From Candidatus Moraniibacteriota bacterium (lineage in GTDB: Bacteria; Patescibacteriota; Minisyncoccia; Moranbacterales; UBA11712): a DNA stretch of 64,000 nt. The stretch is taken from positions 18,998 through 82,997 of the forward strand of contig JAQVJV010000002.1 of NCBI GenBank assembly GCA_028695025.1, written 5' to 3'. Below are positions 6,157 to 55,961 of this stretch, one piece after another. The notes under the pieces are model-generated. The model ran no database searches, was not told where the DNA came from, and saw nothing but the letters and a program-made list of their open reading frames with translations. A program made the position numbers and the translations under genes. How positions within the stretch are numbered: the stretch's first letter is position 1; every line of letters begins with the position of its first letter.

Positions 6157-9100
6157 ATGAATCAACAAAATGCCACCAAAGTGAGCGACTTCGACGCAAT
6201 CCGATTGAAGCTCGCGAGTCCCGACGATATCCTCAATTGGTCCCACGGCGAGGTGACAAAGCCGGAGACAATCAACTATCGCACCCAAAGATACGAGCGC
6301 GACGGTCTTTTTTGCGAAAAAATTTTCGGACCAGCCAAGGACTGGGAATGTTACTGCGGAAAATACAAAAAAATCCGCTATAAAGGCATCATTTGCGACA
6401 AGTGCGGCGTGGAAGTAACACGCTCGATCGTCCGGCGGGAACGGCTGGGGCATATCAAGCTCGCGGTGCCGGTTTCTCATATTTGGTTTTTGCGGGGCGT
6501 GCCTTCCAAAATCGGCTTGTCGCTCGGCATGTCGGCGCAGGAATTGGAAAAGGTGGTTTACTTTGCGAGCTATATTGTCATGGAAGTGGATGAGGATGCC
6601 CGCAAGGAAGCGCTTGACCGGCTGGAAGCGGAATACAAAGGCAAGCAGAAGAAAAGCGAATCAGAAAAAGAGAATGAAGAACTCAAGGGCGCCTATCAAG
6701 CCGGCCGGGAAGAACTCAAGAGCCTTCGCCGGTTCCAGATCCTTTCCGAAGTGGAATATTTCAATTTGTCGCTCAAATATGGCCATGTTTTCAAGGCGGG
6801 AATCGGAGCGGAAGCAGTCCGGCGTATTTTGGAAGGGCTCAATATTGAAGAGGAGATCGCCCGGATCAACAAAGAGATTGAAGACGACAAAATTTCTGAC
6901 AAGAAAAAACTTTTAAAACAACTCAAATTGTTCCAGGGGTTCAGCCAGGCCGGCCTTCGTCCCGAATGGATGCTCCCAACCGTGATCCCGGTCATTCCGC
7001 CGGATCTTCGCCCGATGGTCCAGCTTGACGGGGGACGGTTTGCGACTTCGGATCTCAACGATCTCTACCGTCGTATCATCAACCGCAACAACCGGTTGAG
7101 AAAACTGATCGAGATCGGCGCGCCGGAAGTGATTTCCCGGAACGAAAAAAGAATGCTCCAAGAAGCGGTGGATGCGCTGTTTGATAACTCTGCCCGTCGG
7201 GGACAAACTTCGGTGGCGGCTTCAACTGGACAGAAGCGGGCCCTTCGGTCGCTGGCTGATATGCTCAAAGGAAAGCAAGGACGTTTCCGCCAGAACCTTC
7301 TTGGAAAGCGGGTGGATTATTCCGGTCGGAGCGTGATTGTGGTCGGACCGAAACTGAAACTCCATCAGTGCGGTTTGCCGAAGAAAATGGCTCTTGAACT
7401 TTTCAAACCTTTCATCATCAACAAGCTGATCGAAAGGGAATATGCCCACAACGTGCGAAGCGCTGGAAAAATGGTGGAATTCGAAGCGGAAGAAGCTTAT
7501 GAAATTCTTGACGATATCATCGAACATCACTATGTGCTTTTGAACCGCGCCCCGACCCTGCACCGTTTGAGTATCCAGGCTTTCCAGCCGGTGTTCATCG
7601 AAGGAAAAGCGATCCAGATCCATCCGATGGTATGTTCGGCTTTCAACGCGGACTTCGACGGAGACCAGATGGCGGTCCATGTGCCGCTCACCGAGGAAGC
7701 GCGCACCGAAGCGGGAAACATAATGCTTTCGGCGAAAAACCTTTTGAAGCCGGCGAGCGGAGACCCGATCACGATCCCGTCGCAGGACATGGTGCTCGGT
7801 TGTTACTATATGACCCATATCATGCCGGGCCGCACCGGAGAAGGAAAAATTTTTGCAACACCCGAAGAAGCGAAACTGGCCTATCATTTCGGAAGCGTTG
7901 ATCTCAAAGCGGAAATCGAAGTGGATTTTGGAACGGAAAGAAGGAAAACTTCTGTGGGCCGGATTCTTTTCAATGAAATCATGCCGGTGGAAATCGGTTT
8001 CGTGAATGAAGAAATGGACAAAGGAAAATTGAGAAAGATTGTGGCGCAGTGCCTTGAGATATCTGGACGGGACGAAACGGCCAAATTCGTGGACGAACTC
8101 AAAAATTTGGCATTCTCGCTTGTCACCCGTTCCGGAATCAGCTGGGGGATGGATGACCTTGCTGTTCCGGAAGAAAAGAAAAAGATCATGGAAGACGCTG
8201 AAGATCGGGTGGAGCTCATCAACAAGCAATATGGCATGGGGCTTCTCACCGACCGGGAAAGAAAAAGCCAGGTGATCGAGATTTGGAGCGAAGCGAAGAA
8301 TAAAATCACGGAAGCGGTGCGCGCTTCTCTCGACAAAGAAGGCCCGGTATATTCCATGGTATATTCCAAAGCGCGCGGCACGGAAGCGGTGGTGGTGCAG
8401 ATGACCGGAATGAAAGGGCTGGTGGCCGGTCCGACCGGGGAAACGATCGAACTGCCGATCAAATCATCGTTCAAAGAAGGTTTCAACGTCCTTGAATATT
8501 TCATTGCGACCCACGGAGCCCGGAAAGGTATGGCGGACACCGCCCTTCGGACGGCGACGGCCGGATACCTGACGCGGCGGCTTGTGGATGTGGCGCAGGA
8601 TGTCGTGGTTCGGGAAGTCGATTGCGGCGACGATCGGGGAAATTTCATGTATCGCGAAGACTCGGACGTGGTCGGCATCAGCTTTGCTTCCCGCATCACC
8701 GGACGCTATTTGATCGAAGATGTGGCTGATCCCAAGACGAAAAAAGCTATCCTCAAGGCGGGAGATCTCATCACGAAAGAAAAAGCGGAAGAGATTGAAA
8801 AAGCGAAAGTGGAAAAAATAAAGATCCGGTCTGTCGTCACTTGCCAGAGCCGGCGCGGAATATGCCAGAAATGCTATGGAATGGACCTGGGCCGGAACGA
8901 ACTTGTGCAGATCGGACAAGCGGTGGGAATCGTGGCGGCGCAGGCTATCGGAGAGCCGGGAACCCAGCTCACGATGCGTACTTTCCACATCGGAGGCGTC
9001 GCCGGAACGGATATCACCCAGGGACTTCCGCGCGTGGATGAAATTTTTGAATCCCGCCCGCCGAAAGGAGAAGCCGCCATTTCCGAAGTGGACGGGCAGG

Positions 9101-21945: not shown

Positions 21946-22995
21946 TTAAATCTTGAACTCAATCACATCACCATCTTGGACAATATAATCTTTTCCTTCC
22001 GTGCGGAGCGTTCCCAATTCGCGGGCGCTGGCCCACGATCCGGCCTCGAGCAACTTTTCCCAGCTGATCACATCCGCGCGGATGAATTTTTCTTCGAAAT
22101 CGGTGTGGATGGCGCTTCCGGCCTGTGGGGCGCTTGAATTTTTCTTCACTGTCCAGGCGCGGGTTTCGTCGGGACCGGTGGTGAGGAAAGTGATGAGCCC
22201 TAAAATTTCATAGGCTTTGAGAATCAACTGATCAAGATTTGATTTCATGCCAAGTTCTTTGGCTTCCTCCACCGACATTTCGGAAAGTTCTTCTTCTATT
22301 TTGACATCGATAGGAACAGTATTTTCGAGAAGATTCAATCTTCGGTCTCCGAAGGTTGAACCTTCAGAAATATTCGTATTCAAGACAAACAACATCGGCT
22401 TCCAGGTGAGAAGCTGTATGTCGCGGACAAGCGAAAAATCCTCTTCTGATAATTTCAGTTCGCTGGCCAGTTTCCCCCCATCCAAAATATTTTTGATATT
22501 TTTCACAATTTCAAGCGCTTTTGCGGCAACTTTATCTTGTCCGCGGGCTTCTTTTTCAAGTCTCGCTATTCTTTTTTGCACGGTTTCAATGTCGGCGAGA
22601 ATGAGTTCGGTGTTGATCACTTCGACATCGCTCTCGGGATCAATCTTATTGTGAACGTGGGTGATGTCGCTATTCTCGAATCCGCGAACGACTTGCGCGA
22701 TTGCGTCCACCTCCCGAATATGCGAAAGGAATTTGTTTCCCAAGCCCTCGCCTTCGGCCGCGCCGCGGACCAGTCCCGCGATGTCGACAAACTCAACCAC
22801 CGTCGGGACGATTTTCGCCGAGCCTGACATTTTCGCCAGTTTTTCGAGGCGCTCATCGGGCACGCGAACAACACCGACGTTCGGTTCGATGGTGCAAAAA
22901 GGATAATTGGCAATATCCACCGGATTTTTGGTGAGAGCTTTGAACAATGTCGATTTCCCGACATTTGGAAGCCCTACGATTCCGACCCGAAGCAT
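21946..22995 (-). CDS. ychF: Ribosome-binding ATPase YchF
   Basis: GIVGLPNVGKSTLFKALT G1 motif. NTEL...TGPDETRAWTV TGS domain at the C-terminus. 349 aa. Confidence 0.92.
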   Translation of the reverse strand: MLRVGIVGLPNVGKSTLFKALTKNPVDIANYPFCTIEPNVGVVRVPDERLEKLAKMSGSAKIVPTVVEFVDIAGLVRGAAEGEGLGNKFLSHIREVDAIAQVVRGFENSDITHVHNKIDPESDVEVINTELILADIETVQKRIARLEKEARGQDKVAAKALEIVKNIKNILDGGKLASELKLSEEDFSLVRDIQLLTWKPMLFVLNTNISEGSTFGDRRLNLLENTVPIDVKIEEELSEMSVEEAKELGMKSNLDQLILKAYEILGLITFLTTGPDETRAWTVKKNSSAPQAGSAIHTDFEEKFIRADVISWEKLLEAGSWASARELGTLRTEGKDYIVQDGDVIEFKI

Positions 22996-23046
22996 AGATT
23001 TATTTGAAATTGAAATTGTTTATTGCTAAACTATTATTGCAATAAA
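22982..23046. repeat. 65-bp perfect direct repeat copy 1 (includes the real ychF start codon and upstream region)
   Basis: CCGACCCGAAGCATAGATTTATTTGAAATTGAAATTGTTTATTGCTAAACTATTATTGCAATAAA, identical to 25406-25470. Confidence 0.95.
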
Positions 23047-23207
23047 ATTAACTAAAATCAAGATTTTGACAAAACCGAAGAAAAGGGCGGCGGCAAGGAT
23101 AATATCGCCACAGTCAAACTCATTGAGGTTCTAGATAATGCTGATTTATATATCGAAGAAAAATCTTCTAGTCTAGAGCCATTGAAAATATTTTACAGGA
23201 AATAGAT

Positions 23208-23669
23208 TTGCTCTTGAAGAAGAAAGATAATCTGGCGGGCAAGTATTTGTTTGGTGCCTTTCAAAATGTGCGCAAGCAATTGATGCGGGCATTGATGTTT
23301 AAAAACCTCATCACGGAAGGGCATATCTCAAATTTGGCAAGATTCTCAACGATTGCCAAACTTATTCACCAAGCAAAACAGATTGAATGAATTGGATCGG
23401 GCCAAGCGGATTTTCTTGTTGAGACAACAAAGGGCCACTTTCTCGTGGTAGAGGTGAAATCAAACCGGGAAAAAGAAGGCTACGAAAAGAACAAGGAGCA
23501 ATACAAAGGAAAAGCCGAGCAACTTTTCAGCGAGGTGTTTGCCAAAGAAATCGGTTTCAAAGAATTTCAACAAGCCAACAAAAACTTTGAATATCGCATC
23601 ATCTTTGATGCTTCGCTCCAGAAAAGGCAGCAGGAGCTTCTGCAGGGCATTGAAAAATTTGAAAAATAA
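23208..23669 (+). pseudogene. PD-(D/E)xK (YraN/UPF0102-like) nuclease-fold ORF interrupted by an in-frame TGA at 23388-23390
   Basis: The two ORF-track pieces 23208-23390 and 23445-23669 are in one frame. ...LIHQAKQIE*IGSGQADFLVETTKGHFLVVEVKSNREKEG shows the D...EVK signature spanning the stop. Confidence 0.4.
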
Positions 23670-23700
23670 ATCAAGAAATCAAAATTGAAAAATAAAATCC

Positions 23701-23748
23701 GCCAGTCTGCGATGTTCTGCAAACTGGCGGTTCTTTTTACGCCTTTGA
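23701..23748. terminator. Bidirectional terminator hairpin, copy 1 of an identical 48-bp repeat
   Basis: AATAAAATCCGCCAGTCTGCGATGTTCTGCAAACTGGCGGTTCTTTTT. 12-bp stem with one mismatch, followed by a T-tail. Confidence 0.7.
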
Positions 23749-23757
23749 ACGCTCGGT

Positions 23758-24618
23758 TTAGGCCGTTTGTTGCCGCATAGCGTCGAACTGCGGCCAGGGG
23801 TCAAACTGCGAACCGATGCCGGGGATGATGTGCTCTTGCCTGCCCTCACCCATATAGCACCGAACTTTGGCGTTGCCTTCCGCATCCAGGTCAAAGCGGT
23901 CAACGATTTTCTTGCCGCCGCATCCACAGGGGCAGTCAACTTCAATCTGTATGACCGGGAAAAGAGGCCTCCCGTCTTCCCCGATGGGATATTTTGGGAT
24001 AGAACCCTCACGGCGACCGAAGGAATTGAAGTTTTCGTGGTTGATATGTTTGGCCATCTTCTGGAGGTCAGCCATAGGGTAGTTGGGAAATTCATCGCCG
24101 GGAAGGTCTGCCCCCATAATGCGGTTCATCAGCTCAATGAGCCTGTGGCTGCCCGCAGTGCGAGCATCGTGATTGAAAAAGGAGTAGAGGGCCTTGCCTT
24201 CCTGAACCAGGGAGAGGTCTTTCGGACGGGAGAAAATCATTTCCGCCCCGCCGTAGTCCATAACTATCTGGTAAATGAAGGTTTTGTCCGCGGGGCAACG
24301 CTTCCGGATTTTGTTGACTAGGTTTTGGACGATGTCCTTTTCTTGGGCTACCGACCAGACCATAATGAGGAAAACTGCCACGGCTTCTTCGGCTTCCCGG
24401 ATGCGGCGGATGAGCCCGCCCTTCAATTTGCCGATTTTCCGTATGAGGCCTTTCCTTTTTTTAAGGCCAACATAGGAGACAACTTGCGGGTGAAAGCTGT
24501 TGAAGCCGCGATACATCCAGAACCCCGACATAAGCTCCTCTATATCAGAGCCGTCGTAGGTTCGTTGCCCGATAAAAACGGGCAGAGCCGAAACCTCTTC
24601 TTTTTTGAAAGTCCTCAT
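23758..24618 (-). CDS. Hypothetical protein with C-terminal CPCGCGG zinc-ribbon-like motif (main cargo ORF)
   Basis: 286 aa, in GC-rich DNA. ...IQIEVDCPCGCGGKKIVDRFDLDAEGNAKVRCYMGEG. No family recognised. Confidence 0.5.
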   Translation of the reverse strand: MRTFKKEEVSALPVFIGQRTYDGSDIEELMSGFWMYRGFNSFHPQVVSYVGLKKRKGLIRKIGKLKGGLIRRIREAEEAVAVFLIMVWSVAQEKDIVQNLVNKIRKRCPADKTFIYQIVMDYGGAEMIFSRPKDLSLVQEGKALYSFFNHDARTAGSHRLIELMNRIMGADLPGDEFPNYPMADLQKMAKHINHENFNSFGRREGSIPKYPIGEDGRPLFPVIQIEVDCPCGCGGKKIVDRFDLDAEGNAKVRCYMGEGRQEHIIPGIGSQFDPWPQFDAMRQQTA

Positions 24619-24735
24619 CCTGCTTCCTCCTCAAAGCTGAATTTTACGCTGAAACATCGCATTCTCTGTTAGGAAAAGCGATAAATCATTAAAGCAATAA
24701 ATGTCCCTGATGTCAATCTGGGCCATTTTTCAGTA

Positions 24736-24783
24736 AATAAAATCCGCCAGTCTGCGATGTTCTGCAAACTGGCGGTTCTTTTT
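24736..24783. terminator. Terminator hairpin, copy 2 of the identical 48-bp repeat
   Basis: Identical to 23701-23748. Confidence 0.7.
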
Positions 24784-24919
24784 GTGATTTTAGTCGATAG
24801 TCAAGCTATCGAGAACCCAACTTTCCAACGCTTTGTTTGGAAACTCCTTGATTTCCTCGCGGTCTTCGCATTCGGATATTCGGGCCTTGTTGGCTACGAT
24901 AACTTGCATTGGAGTATAT

Positions 24920-25180
24920 TCACTCATTACCACGCTCTCGGTAAGCACGCAGCAGGTGTTTGAGCTTCGTGCATTCCGCCTTGAACCAGCGAGGGTCGAG
25001 CCAAGTGCGGTTTAGGCCAAGAATATCGTCGATGTATTCCCGGGCCTCTTCAGGCGTGGTATCGTCCTCTTCCCGCAATTCCCAGATGAGTGCTTTGATA
25101 TGAGGCAAGTCATCTTTCTTTGGGAATAGCTTCAAATGCTTGCAGATCGGCATCAGAGTGAAAACCGGATGTATCGGCAT
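24920..25180 (-). CDS. Hypothetical small protein
   Basis: 86-aa charged ORF. Its TGA overlaps, in ATGAGTGA, the start of a further 45-aa ORF (24790-24927, minus). Confidence 0.35.
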   Translation of the reverse strand: MPIHPVFTLMPICKHLKLFPKKDDLPHIKALIWELREEDDTTPEEAREYIDDILGLNRTWLDPRWFKAECTKLKHLLRAYRERGNE

Positions 25181-25269
25181 AATTTCCCCCTTGATTGTAA
25201 AATGGCTTCAGAATAGGCTACCAACAAAAAGTTTTAGTGTCAATAATCGTTATTCAAACGGCACTGACC

Positions 25270-25350
25270 GCATAATTCTTCCTTTTTAATTTCAAGCCAC
25301 GATTATTCGCTCATACTGCGGCGGTGGCAGTTTTATCGTGAAAGCGAAAG
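25270..25350. repeat. ~75-bp imperfect direct repeat, copy A
   Basis: ...CACGATTATTCGCTCATACTGCGGCGGTGGCAGTTTTATCGTGAAAG, about 80% identical to 26630-26705. Confidence 0.6.
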
Positions 25351-25405
25351 GGATGATTTTTTCAGAATTGCCGTTTGTGAAATGTCTGATAGCGTTCGCT
25401 CCGTG

Positions 25406-25470
25406 CCGACCCGAAGCATAGATTTATTTGAAATTGAAATTGTTTATTGCTAAACTATTATTGCAATAAA
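25406..25470. repeat. 65-bp perfect direct repeat copy 2 (carries a dead-end duplicate of the first 14 nt of ychF)
   Basis: Identical to 22982-23046. Similarity continues degenerately for ~30 bp (TAAAATCAAGATTTT present in both). Confidence 0.95.
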
Positions 25471-25658
25471 GCGGTTAAAAATCAAGATTTTATAAAAAAT
25501 GGACACATACTGGTAATTTCTAACGAAAATCATATGGGCATCAAAGTTGAGTTCAATCCCGATTTGGCACTCCGTGACATTTCGGGAAAAAATTGACAAT
25601 CAGCTGGATATTCTGTAATTTTTCACAAAAGCAATTTTCTCTTGAGAGGGGGAGAAAT

Positions 25659-25814
25659 ATGACCGGCGAACAGATAAAAAAGGCTATGGACGAGTATAGA
25701 GCGTTCTTTGAAAAAATGGGAGCTCCTAAAATCGATTATCCTCACGAAAAACTTCTTGACGTTCCCGTGCGGGGTTTAGCTCATTGCCACGGGATGCTGG
25801 ATAAAATGGAATAA
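25659..25814 (+). CDS. Hypothetical small protein followed by an in-frame TAA and a further 38-codon open frame
   Basis: RBS GAGAGGGGGAG, then MTGEQIKKAMDEYRAFFEKMG...MLDKME*FLKEGRIEKAMRWLCFIQGCLWSNGYYTIGQLADHKRGE. Possibly a nonsense-disrupted gene. Confidence 0.3.
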   Translation: MTGEQIKKAMDEYRAFFEKMGAPKIDYPHEKLLDVPVRGLAHCHGMLDKME

Positions 25815-25937
25815 TTTTTGAAAGAGGGCCGCATTGAAAAGGCGATGCGGTGGCTCTGCTTCATTCAGGGATGCCTCTGGTCAAACGGCTATTATACCAT
25901 TGGCCAATTGGCCGACCATAAACGAGGGGAGTGAAAG

Positions 25938-26315
25938 ATGACATATTACGAGGGATACGAAGTGAAAACCTGCACGCCAGCCGACTTTCAAGACACGATT
26001 TGCGACTGCCTGTGCGACGTTATGGTTTCCGAAGCCGATGAAAAACCGGGATGCATCGTAATCCCGACCAATCTCAACTTGCGGTATTCGGAAAAAGGCG
26101 GATTGGGCCTCGCCATTGCTGGCTTCTATGTGGCCATCCCCAGTTTTGAAAATCCGCCGAAACGGGAAGAAACCATCAAAATTATCCGGGAGGCATACGA
26201 GACTATGGTTCAGTCAATCGCGGCTCTTCCGATGAGAATTGGAGAAATACGGGAAATCCCAATTGTTCCGGACGCGGAATACAACCTCGAAATTGAACTT
26301 CATCATCTGCAATAA
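25938..26315 (+). CDS. Hypothetical protein
   Basis: 125-aa ORF. No recognised motifs. Confidence 0.4.
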   Translation: MTYYEGYEVKTCTPADFQDTICDCLCDVMVSEADEKPGCIVIPTNLNLRYSEKGGLGLAIAGFYVAIPSFENPPKREETIKIIREAYETMVQSIAALPMRIGEIREIPIVPDAEYNLEIELHHLQ

Positions 26316-26337
26316 AGACCAAGGGAGGGCTCTGGAG

Positions 26338-26538
26338 ATGAGAAAATCAGAATTGAAGCCGGGAATGAAGGTCAAGAACAAAATTTCCGGCCGGGTCGGC
26401 GAAGTCAAGGGCCTTCCCGATGGCGAATTGGGTTGTGCCGATTGGTGCGTGTCAATTCGTGCTCGCACGATGTCGGGCAAGCACAAAGGGAAGTGGGATT
26501 ATCCCATCTGGAACGTAGCAAGCCTCGAAGCTGCCTAA
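26338..26538 (+). CDS. Hypothetical small protein
   Basis: 66 aa, MRKSELKPGMKVKNKISGRVGEVKGL..., reminiscent of KOW/SH3-like small proteins. Confidence 0.35.
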   Translation: MRKSELKPGMKVKNKISGRVGEVKGLPDGELGCADWCVSIRARTMSGKHKGKWDYPIWNVASLEAA

Positions 26539-26629
26539 ATTTCGCCGGAGGCCACAAATGGCCAATAAAACAAGACCTCAAGTCTCGCGACAAGGGGTCT
26601 TTTCTTTTATTCAATCGGGACAGAATTTA

Positions 26630-26705
26630 TTATCCTGCCTTTTTCATTGCAGGACACGATTATCCGCTCGTAGCGAGATGGGGGCAGTTTTATCGTGAAG
26701 GTGGC
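26630..26705. repeat. ~75-bp imperfect direct repeat, copy B
   Basis: ...CACGATTATCCGCTCGTAGCGAGATGGGGGCAGTTTTATCGTGAAGG. Confidence 0.6.
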
Positions 26706-26750
26706 TGAAAAATCTTTGCGCGATACTTGCGTGATTTTTGGACTTCAAAA

Positions 26751-26786
26751 AAGGCGGATACAAAATGTGTCCGCCTTGATTTTTTA
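26751..26786 (+). terminator. Rho-independent terminator
   Basis: AAGGCGGATACAAAATGTGTCCGCCTT followed by GATTTTTT. Confidence 0.6.
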
Positions 26787-26825
26787 ACCTCACCCCGTCC
26801 CTCTCCTTATCAAGGGAGAGGGAGT
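26787..26825. repeat. Palindromic repeat element copy (ACCTCACCCCGTCCCTCTCCTT-ATC-AAGGGAGAGGGAG)
   Basis: Same family. Lies immediately 3' of manC on the minus strand. Confidence 0.8.
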
Positions 26826-27901
26826 TACAAATTCTTAATCTTGCCTTCGCCTTCGAGTTTTTTGACGACGTCGGAAACGAGTTGGGATTTGTTTTTGTCG
26901 GCGATGAGGATCGCGTCGGGCGTGTCGACTATTATCAAATCTTTTACGCCGATAGTGGTGATCAGTTTTTCCGATCCATAGACCAAGAGATTCTCGCTAT
27001 CGAAATCAAGGTGTTCGCCTTTTACGTTTACCAAATGTTCCTTGTTATTTCCGACCAAAGTTTCCTTGAGGGCGGTCCAGCTTCCGACATCGCTCCATTC
27101 CAACTCCAAGGGAATAACAGCGACGTTTTTTTCGTTTTCCAGAATGGCATAGTCGATGCTGTTTTTGTCCATTTCGGGAAATTCTTTTGCGAGCACTTTG
27201 GCAAAATTATTATTTTTCACGCTGTCGCGGATTTTCACAAGCCGTGCATAATCATCCGGGACATAGCTTTTGAATTTTTCGATGATCGTTTTGGTTTTCC
27301 AAAGGAACATTCCGCTGTTCCAGAAGTAGTTTTCTGATTCGAGGTATTTCTTGGCTGTTTCAAAATCCGGTTTTTCCACGAATTTTTCGGCGTGGAAAAT
27401 TTCCAAACCGTTTTTTTCGAGAGAGCCGTCCTTTTGGATATAGCCGTATCCCGTTTCCGGCGCGCTGGGCGTGATGCCGAATGTCAAAAGATATTCTTCA
27501 TGATTTTTCAAAAATTCCACGCCTTTTCGGATAGCTTCAAGAAGAACTTCCGGATTTTGGATAAAATGGTCGGCGGGGAAAACTCCCATGATTTCTTCTT
27601 CGTCATTTGCGGCAATCACGGCGGCGGCGAGAGCCACAGAGGGTGCGGTGTTTCGCCCTACCGGTTCAGCCAAGATATTCTCTTTTGGAAATTCAAGGAT
27701 TTCTTTTTCCACTTCGCTCACATATTCCTGGTTGGTGGCGACGTATATATCTTCCGGTTCGGCGATTTTCCGCAGGCGCAGGTAGGTTTCCTGAAGCATG
27801 GTTTTGTCGGAGGTGAGGCACTGGAATTGTTTCGGTTTGTTTTTCCGGCTCACGGGCCAAAGGCGGGTTCCTTTTCCGCCGGCCATGATGACGAGTTTCA
27901 T
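26825..27901 (-). CDS. manC: Mannose-1-phosphate guanylyltransferase
   Basis: MKLVIMAGGKGTRLWPVSRKNKPKQF and the nucleotidyl-transferase fold. The ORF track extends to 27937 across a tandem GTGATCAGTGA repeat. Confidence 0.85.
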   Translation of the reverse strand: MKLVIMAGGKGTRLWPVSRKNKPKQFQCLTSDKTMLQETYLRLRKIAEPEDIYVATNQEYVSEVEKEILEFPKENILAEPVGRNTAPSVALAAAVIAANDEEEIMGVFPADHFIQNPEVLLEAIRKGVEFLKNHEEYLLTFGITPSAPETGYGYIQKDGSLEKNGLEIFHAEKFVEKPDFETAKKYLESENYFWNSGMFLWKTKTIIEKFKSYVPDDYARLVKIRDSVKNNNFAKVLAKEFPEMDKNSIDYAILENEKNVAVIPLELEWSDVGSWTALKETLVGNNKEHLVNVKGEHLDFDSENLLVYGSEKLITTIGVKDLIIVDTPDAILIADKNKSQLVSDVVKKLEGEGKIKNL

Positions 27902-28020
27902 GTTTTCGGTGATCAGTGAACAGTGATCAGTGATCAATATCCAATGAAATTAATTGATAAGATATGATATACTCTGATACAATATTAGCGGAGGGCAGTT
28001 AATTTGTAAAACCAAAGAAT

Positions 28021-37980: not shown

Positions 37981-38088
37981 TTATGCCAAAAAATATTACC
38001 CCGGAGCTTTGCTAACAATAGCAAGATAAGTTCCGGGGTTTACTTTTTTTACTTTATCCTTTACAATACAAACTTAGTTTGGGCTTTT

Positions 38089-38133
38089 AACCTCACCCCG
38101 ACCCTCTCCTTATATAAGGCGAAGGAGACGAGG
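38089..38133. repeat. Palindromic repeat element copy, degenerate 3' arm, directly 5' of the uvrA ATG
   Basis: AACCTCACCCCGACCCTCTCCTTATATAAGGCGAAGGAGACGAGG. AAGGAG at 38120-38125 serves as the uvrA RBS. Confidence 0.7.
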
Positions 38134-55815: not shown

Positions 55816-55887
55816 TCTCCTCGGCAGGAATCGAACCTGCATAACCAGCTTAGAAGGCTAGTGTTCTATCCGTTGAACTACGAGGAG
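55816..55887 (-). tRNA. tRNA-Arg (anticodon TCT), flanked by the 13-bp inverted repeat CCCCGCACCATTT/AAATGGTGCGGGG
   Basis: CTCCTCG acceptor. CTAGC-CTTCTAA-GCTGG anticodon arm. GCAGG-TTCGATT-CCTGC T arm. Leader and trailer are complementary. Confidence 0.85.
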
Positions 55888-55909: not shown

Positions 55910-55961
55910 CCTGCATAACCAGCTTAGAAGGCTAGTGTTCTATCCGTTGAACTACGAGGAC
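55910..55961 (-). pseudogene. 52-nt duplicate of the 5' part of tRNA-Arg(TCT), truncated after the 5' T-stem
   Basis: Identical to 55836-55887 except the first nucleotide. Followed by CCCGCCCCCC instead of the T-loop. Confidence 0.6.

Follow-up and report, generated by a model that had tools for sequence, protein, structure and literature searches.

A probable recombinase-less cassette of 2.4 kb, the newest of two stacked at ychF codon 5, in a Moraniibacteriota genome

Introduction

The gene ychF encodes an essential, translation-associated GTPase. In a 64-kb stretch of DNA from Candidatus Moraniibacteriota bacterium (contig JAQVJV010000002.1; hereafter the window), a 2.4-kb segment beside this gene is the newest of two recombinase-less cassettes that are stacked at ychF codon 5. 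The two cassettes form an array that fills the gap between manC and ychF (22982-26824), in which cassette A is the younger and cassette B the older. Cassette A (2,424 bp, 22986-25409) lies next to ychF and is probably a unit of a family of recombinase-less cassettes that insert site-specifically at TCGG, in ychF codons 4-5. The ends and the core of these cassettes, the empty sites, the arrays and a precise insertion into a secondary site are described below. To our knowledge, very little is known about how genes are acquired and exchanged in the small genomes of the candidate phyla radiation (CPR)/Patescibacteria.

The window comes from a metagenome-assembled genome (MAG) built from short reads (source run SRR22315504), and the Logan assembly of the same run was compared with it. 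Other contigs and stretches used for comparison carry the locus labels L001-L101. In total, 80 ychF loci from species-representative genomes were fetched, and a metagenome scan with the core of the D1 arm, one of the two conserved arms of the cassettes, yielded 8 further D1-bearing stretches. Profiles of both arms were used to place D1 and the second arm, the P-arm, in the window. The open reading frames (ORFs) of the cargo were screened against Pfam, PHROGs, NCBIfam and PADLOC.

The 65-bp repeat and the cassette arms

An earlier note on this DNA had drawn attention to a 65-mer (CCGACCCGAAGCATAGATTTATTTGAAATTGAAATTGTTTATTGCTAAACTATTATTGCAATAAA) at 22982-23046 and 25406-25470, and the two copies are indeed 100% identical and 2424 bp apart. 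The window contains just three perfect repeats of 49 nt or more, and the 65-mer, being one of them, is far beyond chance. Copy 1 carries the functional start of the target gene ychF (21946-22995, minus strand), whose 349-aa product is intact and matches Pfam YchF-GTPase_C (1.8e-33) and MMR_HSR1 (9.5e-22). Copy 2 holds the same 14 nt of the ychF start followed by unrelated sequence. On their right-hand side, both copies are followed by some 30 bp of weaker similarity (23054-23074 and 25478-25498 are 86% identical), and the arm profile agrees with this, matching 22982-23080 and 25406-25506, past both copies of the 65-mer. The description of the repeat in the earlier note is therefore accurate in each of these points.

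The 65-bp identity represents the core-proximal parts of the P-arms of two successive cassettes. A P-arm is about 100 nt long and consists of a bidirectional promoter, a leader and an ATG with 3-4 codons ending in GTCGG; the starts read ATGCTTC(G/A)GGTCGG. The P-arm of cassette A, on the attR side, is found at 22982-23080 on the minus strand (profile match, E=5.5e-23), with copy 1 of the repeat inside it and the core CCGA(C) at 22982-22986. A promoter scan places a ychF-directed promoter (TTGATT-17-AATAAT with a TG extension) at 23061->23033 on the minus strand and a divergent promoter (TTGAAA-16-TATTAT, 10/12 matches) at 23010-23037 on the plus strand, aimed into the cargo. The P-arm of cassette B (25406-25506, minus strand), recognised by repeat, profile and promoter scan, holds copy 2 (25406-25470) and the same two promoter-like sites, in matching divergent arrangement, at 25485->25457 (minus) and 25434-25461 (plus). 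Its ATG (25419-25417) now opens a mini-ORF of 28 codons that runs into D1 (25419->25333).

The D1 arm is about 165 nt long, begins with CACGGAGCGAAC and has at its borders an imperfect inverted repeat of the core, TCGGCACGGAG ... CAGTGCCG, in which the partner has the consensus C(A/C/T)GTGCCG and lies about 135 nt from TCGGCACGGAG. In cassette A, the D1 arm (D1a, attL side) occupies 25241-25405 on the minus strand (profile match, E=2.5e-49). The D1 arm of cassette B (D1b, 26598-26701, minus strand; E=2.5e-22) is truncated at its 5' end, covers profile positions 62-165 and is 76% identical to D1a. This truncation resembles that of the copy in L003 (profile positions 74-165), and the native ychF-start fragment that is expected before D1b is lost. 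A 93-nt repeat (25250-25342 and 26607-26699, 76% identical) is part of D1, which ends exactly at copy 2 of the 65-mer. Homologs of D1 at 74-80% identity are present in L009, L086/L091 (3 copies), L088 and L093, and the mean column identity of the arm is 76%. D1 and the P-arm are putative recombinase-binding arms.

Two other roles for D1 were considered, of which the first was rejected and the second is not supported. The mini-ORF of 28 codons that runs through it (M-x-x-x-G-TERTxSDI...SR*) has the same length and stop in every copy; it is not a conserved peptide, because the differences between pairs of copies number 104/172/125 at the three codon positions, with the second position the most variable. 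As a structured RNA, D1 gave weak RNAalifold results on both strands (-7.6 and -17.4 kcal/mol) with 1-2 compensatory pairs (n=7-8 sequences), and no Rfam family matched it at E<=1. An internal segment of D1a (25290-25310, AATAATCGTGGCTTGAAAT in ychF orientation) resembles ychF just 3' of the crossover (22965-22981, GGAATCGTAGGGCTTCCAAAT), and in L009 the D1 segment and the ychF segment change together (TGATTACAGCC and GGGATTGTGGGCC). This ychF-like segment may serve as a second recombinase site, be a relic or have arisen by coincidence.

The P-arms also contain a 28-bp imperfect palindrome of the form 11-6-11 (TTTATTGCTAA-ACTATT-ATTGCAATAAA; 23019-23046 and 25443-25470), which is conserved in L088, L091 and L003 and overlaps both -10 elements. 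It could be a candidate operator for a regulator of the divergent promoters. A reading of this palindrome as a Xer/dif site, as in integrative mobile elements exploiting Xer recombination (IMEX), was rejected: the crossover maps at least 33 nt away, at TCGG (22982-22986), because the native attL junctions and the L088 insertion place it there. In addition, a second conserved type of ychF leader (TTGTCA..N17..TAGAGTAAATAGGAAAT...), which differs from the P-arm of the window, is seen upstream of ychF or of a ychF-start fragment in L005, L007, L008, L082, L093 and L086. It may be native to those lineages, as their own promoter, or may represent another class of arm carried by elements; a profile search for this type at the far end of the L086 cassette gave no match.

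The crossover site in ychF

The empty sites that the earlier note proposed to seek in related genomes are present in L004 and L006, where the manC stop lies 9 nt and 4 nt, respectively, before the ychF ATG. In both, the ychF start reads ATGTC(T/A)CT(C/A)AAAGTCGG|AATCGTGGG, with the bar marking the crossover position. The gap between manC and ychF is 1.2-3.8 kb in L005, L007, L002, L003 and the window, and in comparison with the empty L004 and L006 this marks the manC-ychF junction as an insertion hotspot. The array in the window is bordered by ychF/rpsF/ssb on one side and by manC/pmm on the other; manC (26825-27937, minus strand, Pfam) encodes mannose-1-phosphate guanylyltransferase.

Filled sites use the same nucleotide. 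A native attL is preserved in L091 (7690-7900), which reads manC stop, AAAT, ATGTCTCTCAAGGTCGG|CACGGAGCGAAC, the latter being D1; this manC-proximal junction is a native manC-ychF junction of the L004 type in which D1 replaces the body of ychF. In L009, whose D1 is 74.5% identical to that of the window, the locus' own ychF start is joined to D1 as ATGTCGCTAAAAGTCGG|CACGGAGCGAAC, and the junction in the window is ATGCTTCGGGTCGG|CACGGAGCGAAC. In L086/L091 (3 copies), L093 and L009/L090, D1 begins with CAC(G/A)GA(G/A)CGAAC directly after a ychF-type start, and the starts that precede D1 end in (G/A)(T/C)(C/T)GG. Besides the window, five distinct junctions at the same nucleotide were found (L009, L086/L091 #1, L091 #2, L091 #3 and L093), and each of them fuses its own ychF-type start (MSLKVG, MLRVG, MSFQIG and others) to D1. 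The crossover position is shared by attB (L004, L006), native attL (L091 #3, L009, L093), attR (copy 1 in the window) and the internal attP-like junctions.

Native ychF starts in the relatives read ATGTCNCTNAAAGTCGG (MSLKVG). The YchF of the window starts with MLRVG instead, because its start and promoter are element-borne: the promoter, the start codon and the first four codons (MLRV-G) of the window ychF come from the P-arm of cassette A.

Arrays and the secondary site

The earlier note treated the insertion as a single, isolated element. This has to be revised, since another cassette of the family, older and with a truncated D1 arm, occupies the segment to the right (25471-26701). Cassette B abuts cassette A, extends from 25471 (its P-arm from 25406) to about 26701 and has a cargo region at 25507-26597 on the plus strand whose ORFs are all orphans: orf51 (25659-25814), orf125 (25938-26315) and orf99 (26239-26538). 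Homologs of these three ORFs, with 73-94% aa identity, are present in the ychF arrays of L003 and L091/L086. In L003, the homologs of cargo B are 73-91% identical at the aa level and the DNA is 83% identical over 1,050 nt; a single P-arm stands before ychF and cargo A is absent.

A longer array is found in L091/L086, in the order manC, D1 #3, 3.7 kb, P-arm|D1 #2, cargo-B homologs, P-arm|D1 #1 and more than 10 kb. This array of three cassettes is identical over 13 kb in two independent metagenome assemblies. It also bears on the question of whether cargo A might be a free circle of 2,424 bp, or belong to another strain, and have been threaded into the window through the 65-mer by the assembler. 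The 65-bp repeat gives the same de Bruijn graph for an integrated cassette as for a circle plus an empty site, and in the Logan assembly of SRR22315504 the contigs end exactly where the 65-bp and 49-bp repeats lie: contig L101 starts at 25406, and unitig L001 covers 23709-24764 and breaks 30 nt into each copy of the 49-bp repeat of cassette A. However, the independent assemblies of other samples show tandem junctions with diverged, unambiguous arms (L091/L086), and in L082 cargo A-like DNA is contiguous with ychF. Such an ambiguity is thus very unlikely to account for the locus, and a P-arm|D1 circle would itself be the predicted excised form, so that the biology would stand.

Evidence that the cassette is a discrete mobile unit comes from L088, where a cassette of 3,088 bp has inserted precisely into a gene other than ychF. 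One of its ends is a P-arm (82-84% identical to the 65-mer region of the window) and the other is D1, fused to the non-ychF target at the same D1 position, and the cassette splits a gene for a membrane fusion protein (MFP/HlyD-family efflux adaptor). The two junctions share only CCGA. Removal of the cassette and one CCGA restores an ORF of 361 aa in which the HlyD_D23 and HlyD_3 matches are continuous across the junction, and this ORF aligns without gaps to six intact orthologs of 361 aa (80-88% identity), with LTAP|MDGVIT conserved. Here, a few identical bases suffice, so this is not homologous recombination. Because the L088 target is not ychF and shares only CCGA, it also follows that the ychF start and the promoter upstream of it are borne by the element; the duplication of the target that the earlier note deduced from copy 2 is therefore set aside, with ATG...GTCGG and the promoter belonging to the cassette.

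The same junctions could be explained by non-autonomous transposons with an extreme target preference, a target duplication of 4-5 bp (TCGG/GTCGG) and a transposase encoded elsewhere. Every insertion, that of L088 included, has TCGG at both of its junctions, and this pattern cannot be told apart from a short target-site duplication. Against this, the two ends are unrelated to each other and lack terminal inverted repeats, the insertion falls on the same nucleotide in 6/6 ychF-type junctions examined (window, L009, L086/L091 #1, L091 #2, L091 #3 and L093), and an in-frame arm that carries an ATG fits a fixed position in ychF. In addition, no transposase, TnpA/TnpB or IS110-type gene and no Rfam family was found. 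A transposon origin is therefore regarded as very unlikely.

Cassette cargo and its spread

Across the family, the cassettes measure 2.4-6.5 kb, and possibly more; they hold multiple genes in either orientation with their own promoters. The cargo includes Fic toxins, methyltransferases, pilin-like and membrane proteins and orphan genes. The contents are mosaic between genomes.

The main cargo gene of cassette A is ORF286 (23758-24618, minus strand), a member of an orphan family. Its product is identical to a protein from a Candidatus Moranbacteria MAG, has a generic alpha/beta domain and a Cys-rich C-terminal domain and is not a recombinase by sequence or fold; ORF286 was accordingly rejected as a mobility gene, with no family match and only a generic alpha/beta fold. 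It is bracketed by two identical hairpins of 49 nt, a perfect repeat, of which copy a (23690-23738) is a bidirectional terminator after ORF286 and copy b (24735-24783) a terminator after ORF86/ORF52. ORF86 (24920-25180, minus strand) is an orphan with the ribosome-binding site AAGGGGG and its own TTGACA-type promoter, and ORF52 (24790-24948), which overlaps it, is doubtful. On the other side of ORF286 lies a decayed ORF (23070-23669, plus strand), recognised from three-frame translations by a frameshift and an in-frame stop. Its C-terminal part has a D..EVK motif reminiscent of PD-(D/E)xK nucleases, with no family match in Pfam. For the decayed ORF, ORF286 and ORF86, no match was found in Pfam, PHROGs, NCBIfam or PADLOC. 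The content that the earlier note read between the repeat copies, two identical terminator hairpins with orphan or decayed ORFs and no known mobile-element genes, is thus borne out, in the latter case by the family searches with the cargo ORFs.

The composition of the cargo was described differently. It had been called richer in GC than its surroundings; the GC fraction of cassette A cargo (0.461) equals the window mean (0.461) and ranks at the 43rd percentile among windows of its size, and for tetranucleotide distance the cargo ranks at the 77th percentile. Only ORF286 (GC 0.53) is conspicuous beside the AT-rich intergenic arms, and its values are matched by host genes. The composition is thus indistinguishable from that of the host, a result that the earlier note had named as one that would refute its reading; this carries little weight here, because the cassettes circulate among close relatives.

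DNA related to cargo A is present upstream of ychF in L082, which stems from a different metagenome. An ORF286 homolog (its C-terminal two thirds) is present there together with the terminator and the final part of the decayed ORF, of which the last ~120 nt are conserved beside ychF. This DNA is 84.5% identical to the window, compared with only 70-76% for ychF itself, which indicates that cargo A has spread horizontally. L082-L084 have only one copy of the 49-nt terminator, after the ORF286 homolog and 98% identical. The second copy in cassette A could result from a nested insertion or from recombination between terminators.

The cargo A-like DNA in L082, an instance of such DNA upstream of ychF in another lineage, fits a variant in which the cassette family is site-specific and cargo A reached this genome by homologous recombination. 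Array DNA (P-arm, D1a, cargo A, P-arm, ychF) from a related strain could have entered through the resident P-arm and ychF, or a circle could have integrated Campbell-style through about 95 bp of P-arm homology. The perfect identity over 65 bp followed by about 80% over the next 30 bp looks as if a tract had ended at 23046/25470, and the mosaic cassette contents point in the same direction. This route leaves the first origin of the junctions unexplained and cannot explain L088, where only 4 nt are shared. It is rather unlikely, and it is compatible with site-specific insertion as the main explanation and does not replace it.

Proposed mechanism and the recombinase

Site-specific insertion at TCGG would proceed as follows. 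The free, circular cassette would carry a composite module of about 265 nt in which, in ychF orientation, the P-arm is followed directly by D1. A crossover with ychF at TCGG would leave the old ychF start fused to D1 on the far side (attL), and the P-arm of the cassette would become the new promoter and start of ychF (attR). In this way, the essential gene would stay expressed and the site would be regenerated, so that further cassettes could stack, with the newest nearest to ychF. Insertion into an essential gene would come without cost, since every incoming cassette supplies its own promoter and start in place of the old ones and thereby restores the site.

The earlier note saw here a site-specific insertion into the 5' end of ychF that has attL/attR-like ends and lacks an integrase, and the recurrence of the same junction nucleotide in independent genomes agrees with this. 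The earlier description of an integrase that is missing or lost holds in that none is present in the cassette; the picture of decay may be wrong, as no cassette in any locus has one, and mobilisation in trans may be the normal state of the family. No recombinase was found in the cassettes of any locus seen (Pfam, PHROGs, NCBIfam, PADLOC). Because no cassette encodes one, the recombinase must act in trans; the probable enzyme is a tyrosine recombinase whose gene lies at another place in the genome. A phmmer search with a CPR tyrosine recombinase found nothing among 183 ORFs of the window, which is a weak test for distant integrases.

Two candidates, one for the enzyme and one for the parent element, were rejected. 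L086 encodes a tyrosine recombinase about 8 kb from D1 #1, and this enzyme has no relative in the window or in the other loci. It belongs to a Patescibacteria family of hundreds of proteins (63-89% identity), and loci with a copy that is 81% identical lack the D1 and P arms. A viral or plasmid parent was sought in two scans of viral contigs, which gave only chance 20-nt matches or nothing. As a side observation, at 10001-14500 of L098-L100 a 370-aa tyrosine recombinase that is highly conserved across Patescibacteria (hundreds of homologs, 63-89% identity) lies beside HTH_17 (excisionase-like) genes, and a 505-aa large serine recombinase (LSR) is called in L099 and L100 and not at the same place in L098.

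Several observations weigh against site-specific insertion of a recombinase-less cassette as described here. No recombinase is tied to the arms, and the close relatives of the L086 enzyme (L098-L100) stand in loci that have neither D1 nor P arms. Neither a free attP circle nor an autonomous parent was seen in the 80 genome loci, the 8 metagenome stretches or the viral contigs. The family is narrow, as D1 occurs in only 2/80 species-representative ychF loci (L003 and L009), the window and the 8 metagenome stretches. A crossover at TCGG would not be expected to give an exact identity of 65 bp with an abrupt drop to about 80%, a pattern that hints at gene conversion or homologous exchange. Also, the order of the segments around this repeat rests on the short-read MAG, and the independent Logan assembly of the same run breaks exactly there.

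A further reading, tentative and improbable, is that the manC|ychF junction is a dedicated platform for gene capture of an undescribed kind, at which promoter-carrying cassettes would be exchanged through the composite site of about 265 nt (P-arm, TCGG and D1). Instead of a classical integrase borne by the element, it would be served by a conserved host recombinase or by D1, always transcribed, as a folded DNA or RNA partner, and so be a CPR analogue of integrons with an independent origin. Two properties of D1 enter here, the inverted repeat of the core at its borders and the ychF-like segment inside it. If the recombinase of the cassettes were a conserved host enzyme, the locus would be a new platform for gene capture and, if true, possibly a tool for site-specific integration in organisms that are currently without genetics. 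For site-specific insertion itself, the locus offers a testable system, with attB, attL, attR and attP-like sites that are precise to the nucleotide, empty and filled alleles, arrays and a secondary site.

Comparison with known systems

The closest parallels in architecture are found in the ICESt1/ICESt3 family of Streptococcus thermophilus, in which cis-mobilizable elements (CIMEs) and the tandem accretion of integrative elements have been described (PMC5704250). Like a CIME, the ychF cassette is flanked by attL and attR, lacks genes for integration and transfer, lies in tandem with a related element at the same att site and is built up by successive site-specific integrations into a regenerated att site. 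Attachment-site flanks were found, and integrase, excisionase and transfer genes were not. In contrast, CIMEs are decayed integrative conjugative elements (ICEs) or integrative mobilizable elements (IMEs) with a known parent integrase, whereas the ychF cassettes are without a known autonomous parent or integrase, target the 5' end of a protein-coding gene and have a CPR host.

Another parallel is SXT, which also integrates site-specifically into the first codons of a conserved gene for a translation-associated GTPase (prfC) and forms tandem arrays. In a 1999 paper, SXT reportedly supplies a new promoter and 5' coding sequence that keep prfC functional. However, SXT is about 100 kb long, self-transmissible and equipped with IntSXT, whereas the ychF cassettes measure 2.4-6.5 kb, have no int or xis and carry unrelated arms. 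Membership in the SXT/R391 family does not fit a locus with no integrase and with ychF instead of prfC as the target, and the resemblance would be one of mechanism by analogy only.

Integrons also stack recombinase-less cassettes, mobilised in trans, beside a promoter, with the newest nearest to the insertion point, a conserved recombination site at each cassette boundary and occasional secondary sites that share few bases. Tandem recombinase-less cassettes (window, L091/L086) and a rare secondary site (L088) were likewise found here. The differences are that no intI, attI or Pc lies beside the ychF array, that the array is inside the start of an essential gene, that its cassettes are multi-gene, in either orientation and with their own promoters, and that the boundary is a conserved sequence of about 265 nt, not a structure-defined attC with RYYYAAC/GTTRRRY boxes. 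In every copy, the sequence at the junction is ...GTCGG|CACGGAGCGAAC, without a GTTRRRY box.

The use of ychF as an attachment site is known from elsewhere, namely from pipolins that encode an LSR (PMC11551731) and from a satellite prophage upstream of ychF in pneumococcus (PMC10383233). These elements share with the cassettes ychF or its upstream region as the integration site; they differ in having their own serine or tyrosine recombinases, in living in other phyla and in their att sequences and architecture. Insertion sequences (IS) of the IS200/IS605, IS110 or other families do not correspond to the cassettes, with no such Pfam domains, no Rfam family at D1 and ends that are unrelated, and an IMEX does not either, with no dif-like site at the junction and the palindrome in the P-arm, off the crossover. 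In the literature, no description of this cassette family or of such cassettes in Patescibacteria was found, in line with the suggestion in the earlier note of an uncharacterised element type. The cassette family is previously undescribed: it resembles CIME accretion, SXT and integrons and is a member of none of them.

Neighbouring features and additional observations

Between the array and the manC stop lie a terminator hairpin (26751-26777) and a hairpin of 43 nt (26782-26824) that resembles repetitive extragenic palindromic (REP) sequences. The latter belongs to a family of REP-like hairpins (CCTCACCCC..CCCTCTCCTT..AAGGAGAGGG) that follow gene ends in the window at 322-364, 2103-2145, 26782-26824 and 38085-38127.

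On the manC side of the same junction, L002 contains a direct repeat of 80 nt (6552-6631 and 7804-7883, 91% identical) that duplicates the 3' end of manC and surrounds a reverse-oriented orphan ORF of 344 aa (6698-7732), with no D1 or P arm present. The displaced copy is closer to the manC ends of other lineages (92.6% identical to the window) than the gene end of L002 itself is. This pattern points to another type of site-specific insertion, one that uses the manC side.

Elsewhere in the window, tRNA-Arg(tct) (55816-55887, minus strand) has a partial second copy 74 bp away, formed by a perfect direct repeat of 51 nt (55836-55886 and 55910-55960). Judged from the repeat, an integration or excision at this tRNA gene seems to have left an att-type scar here.

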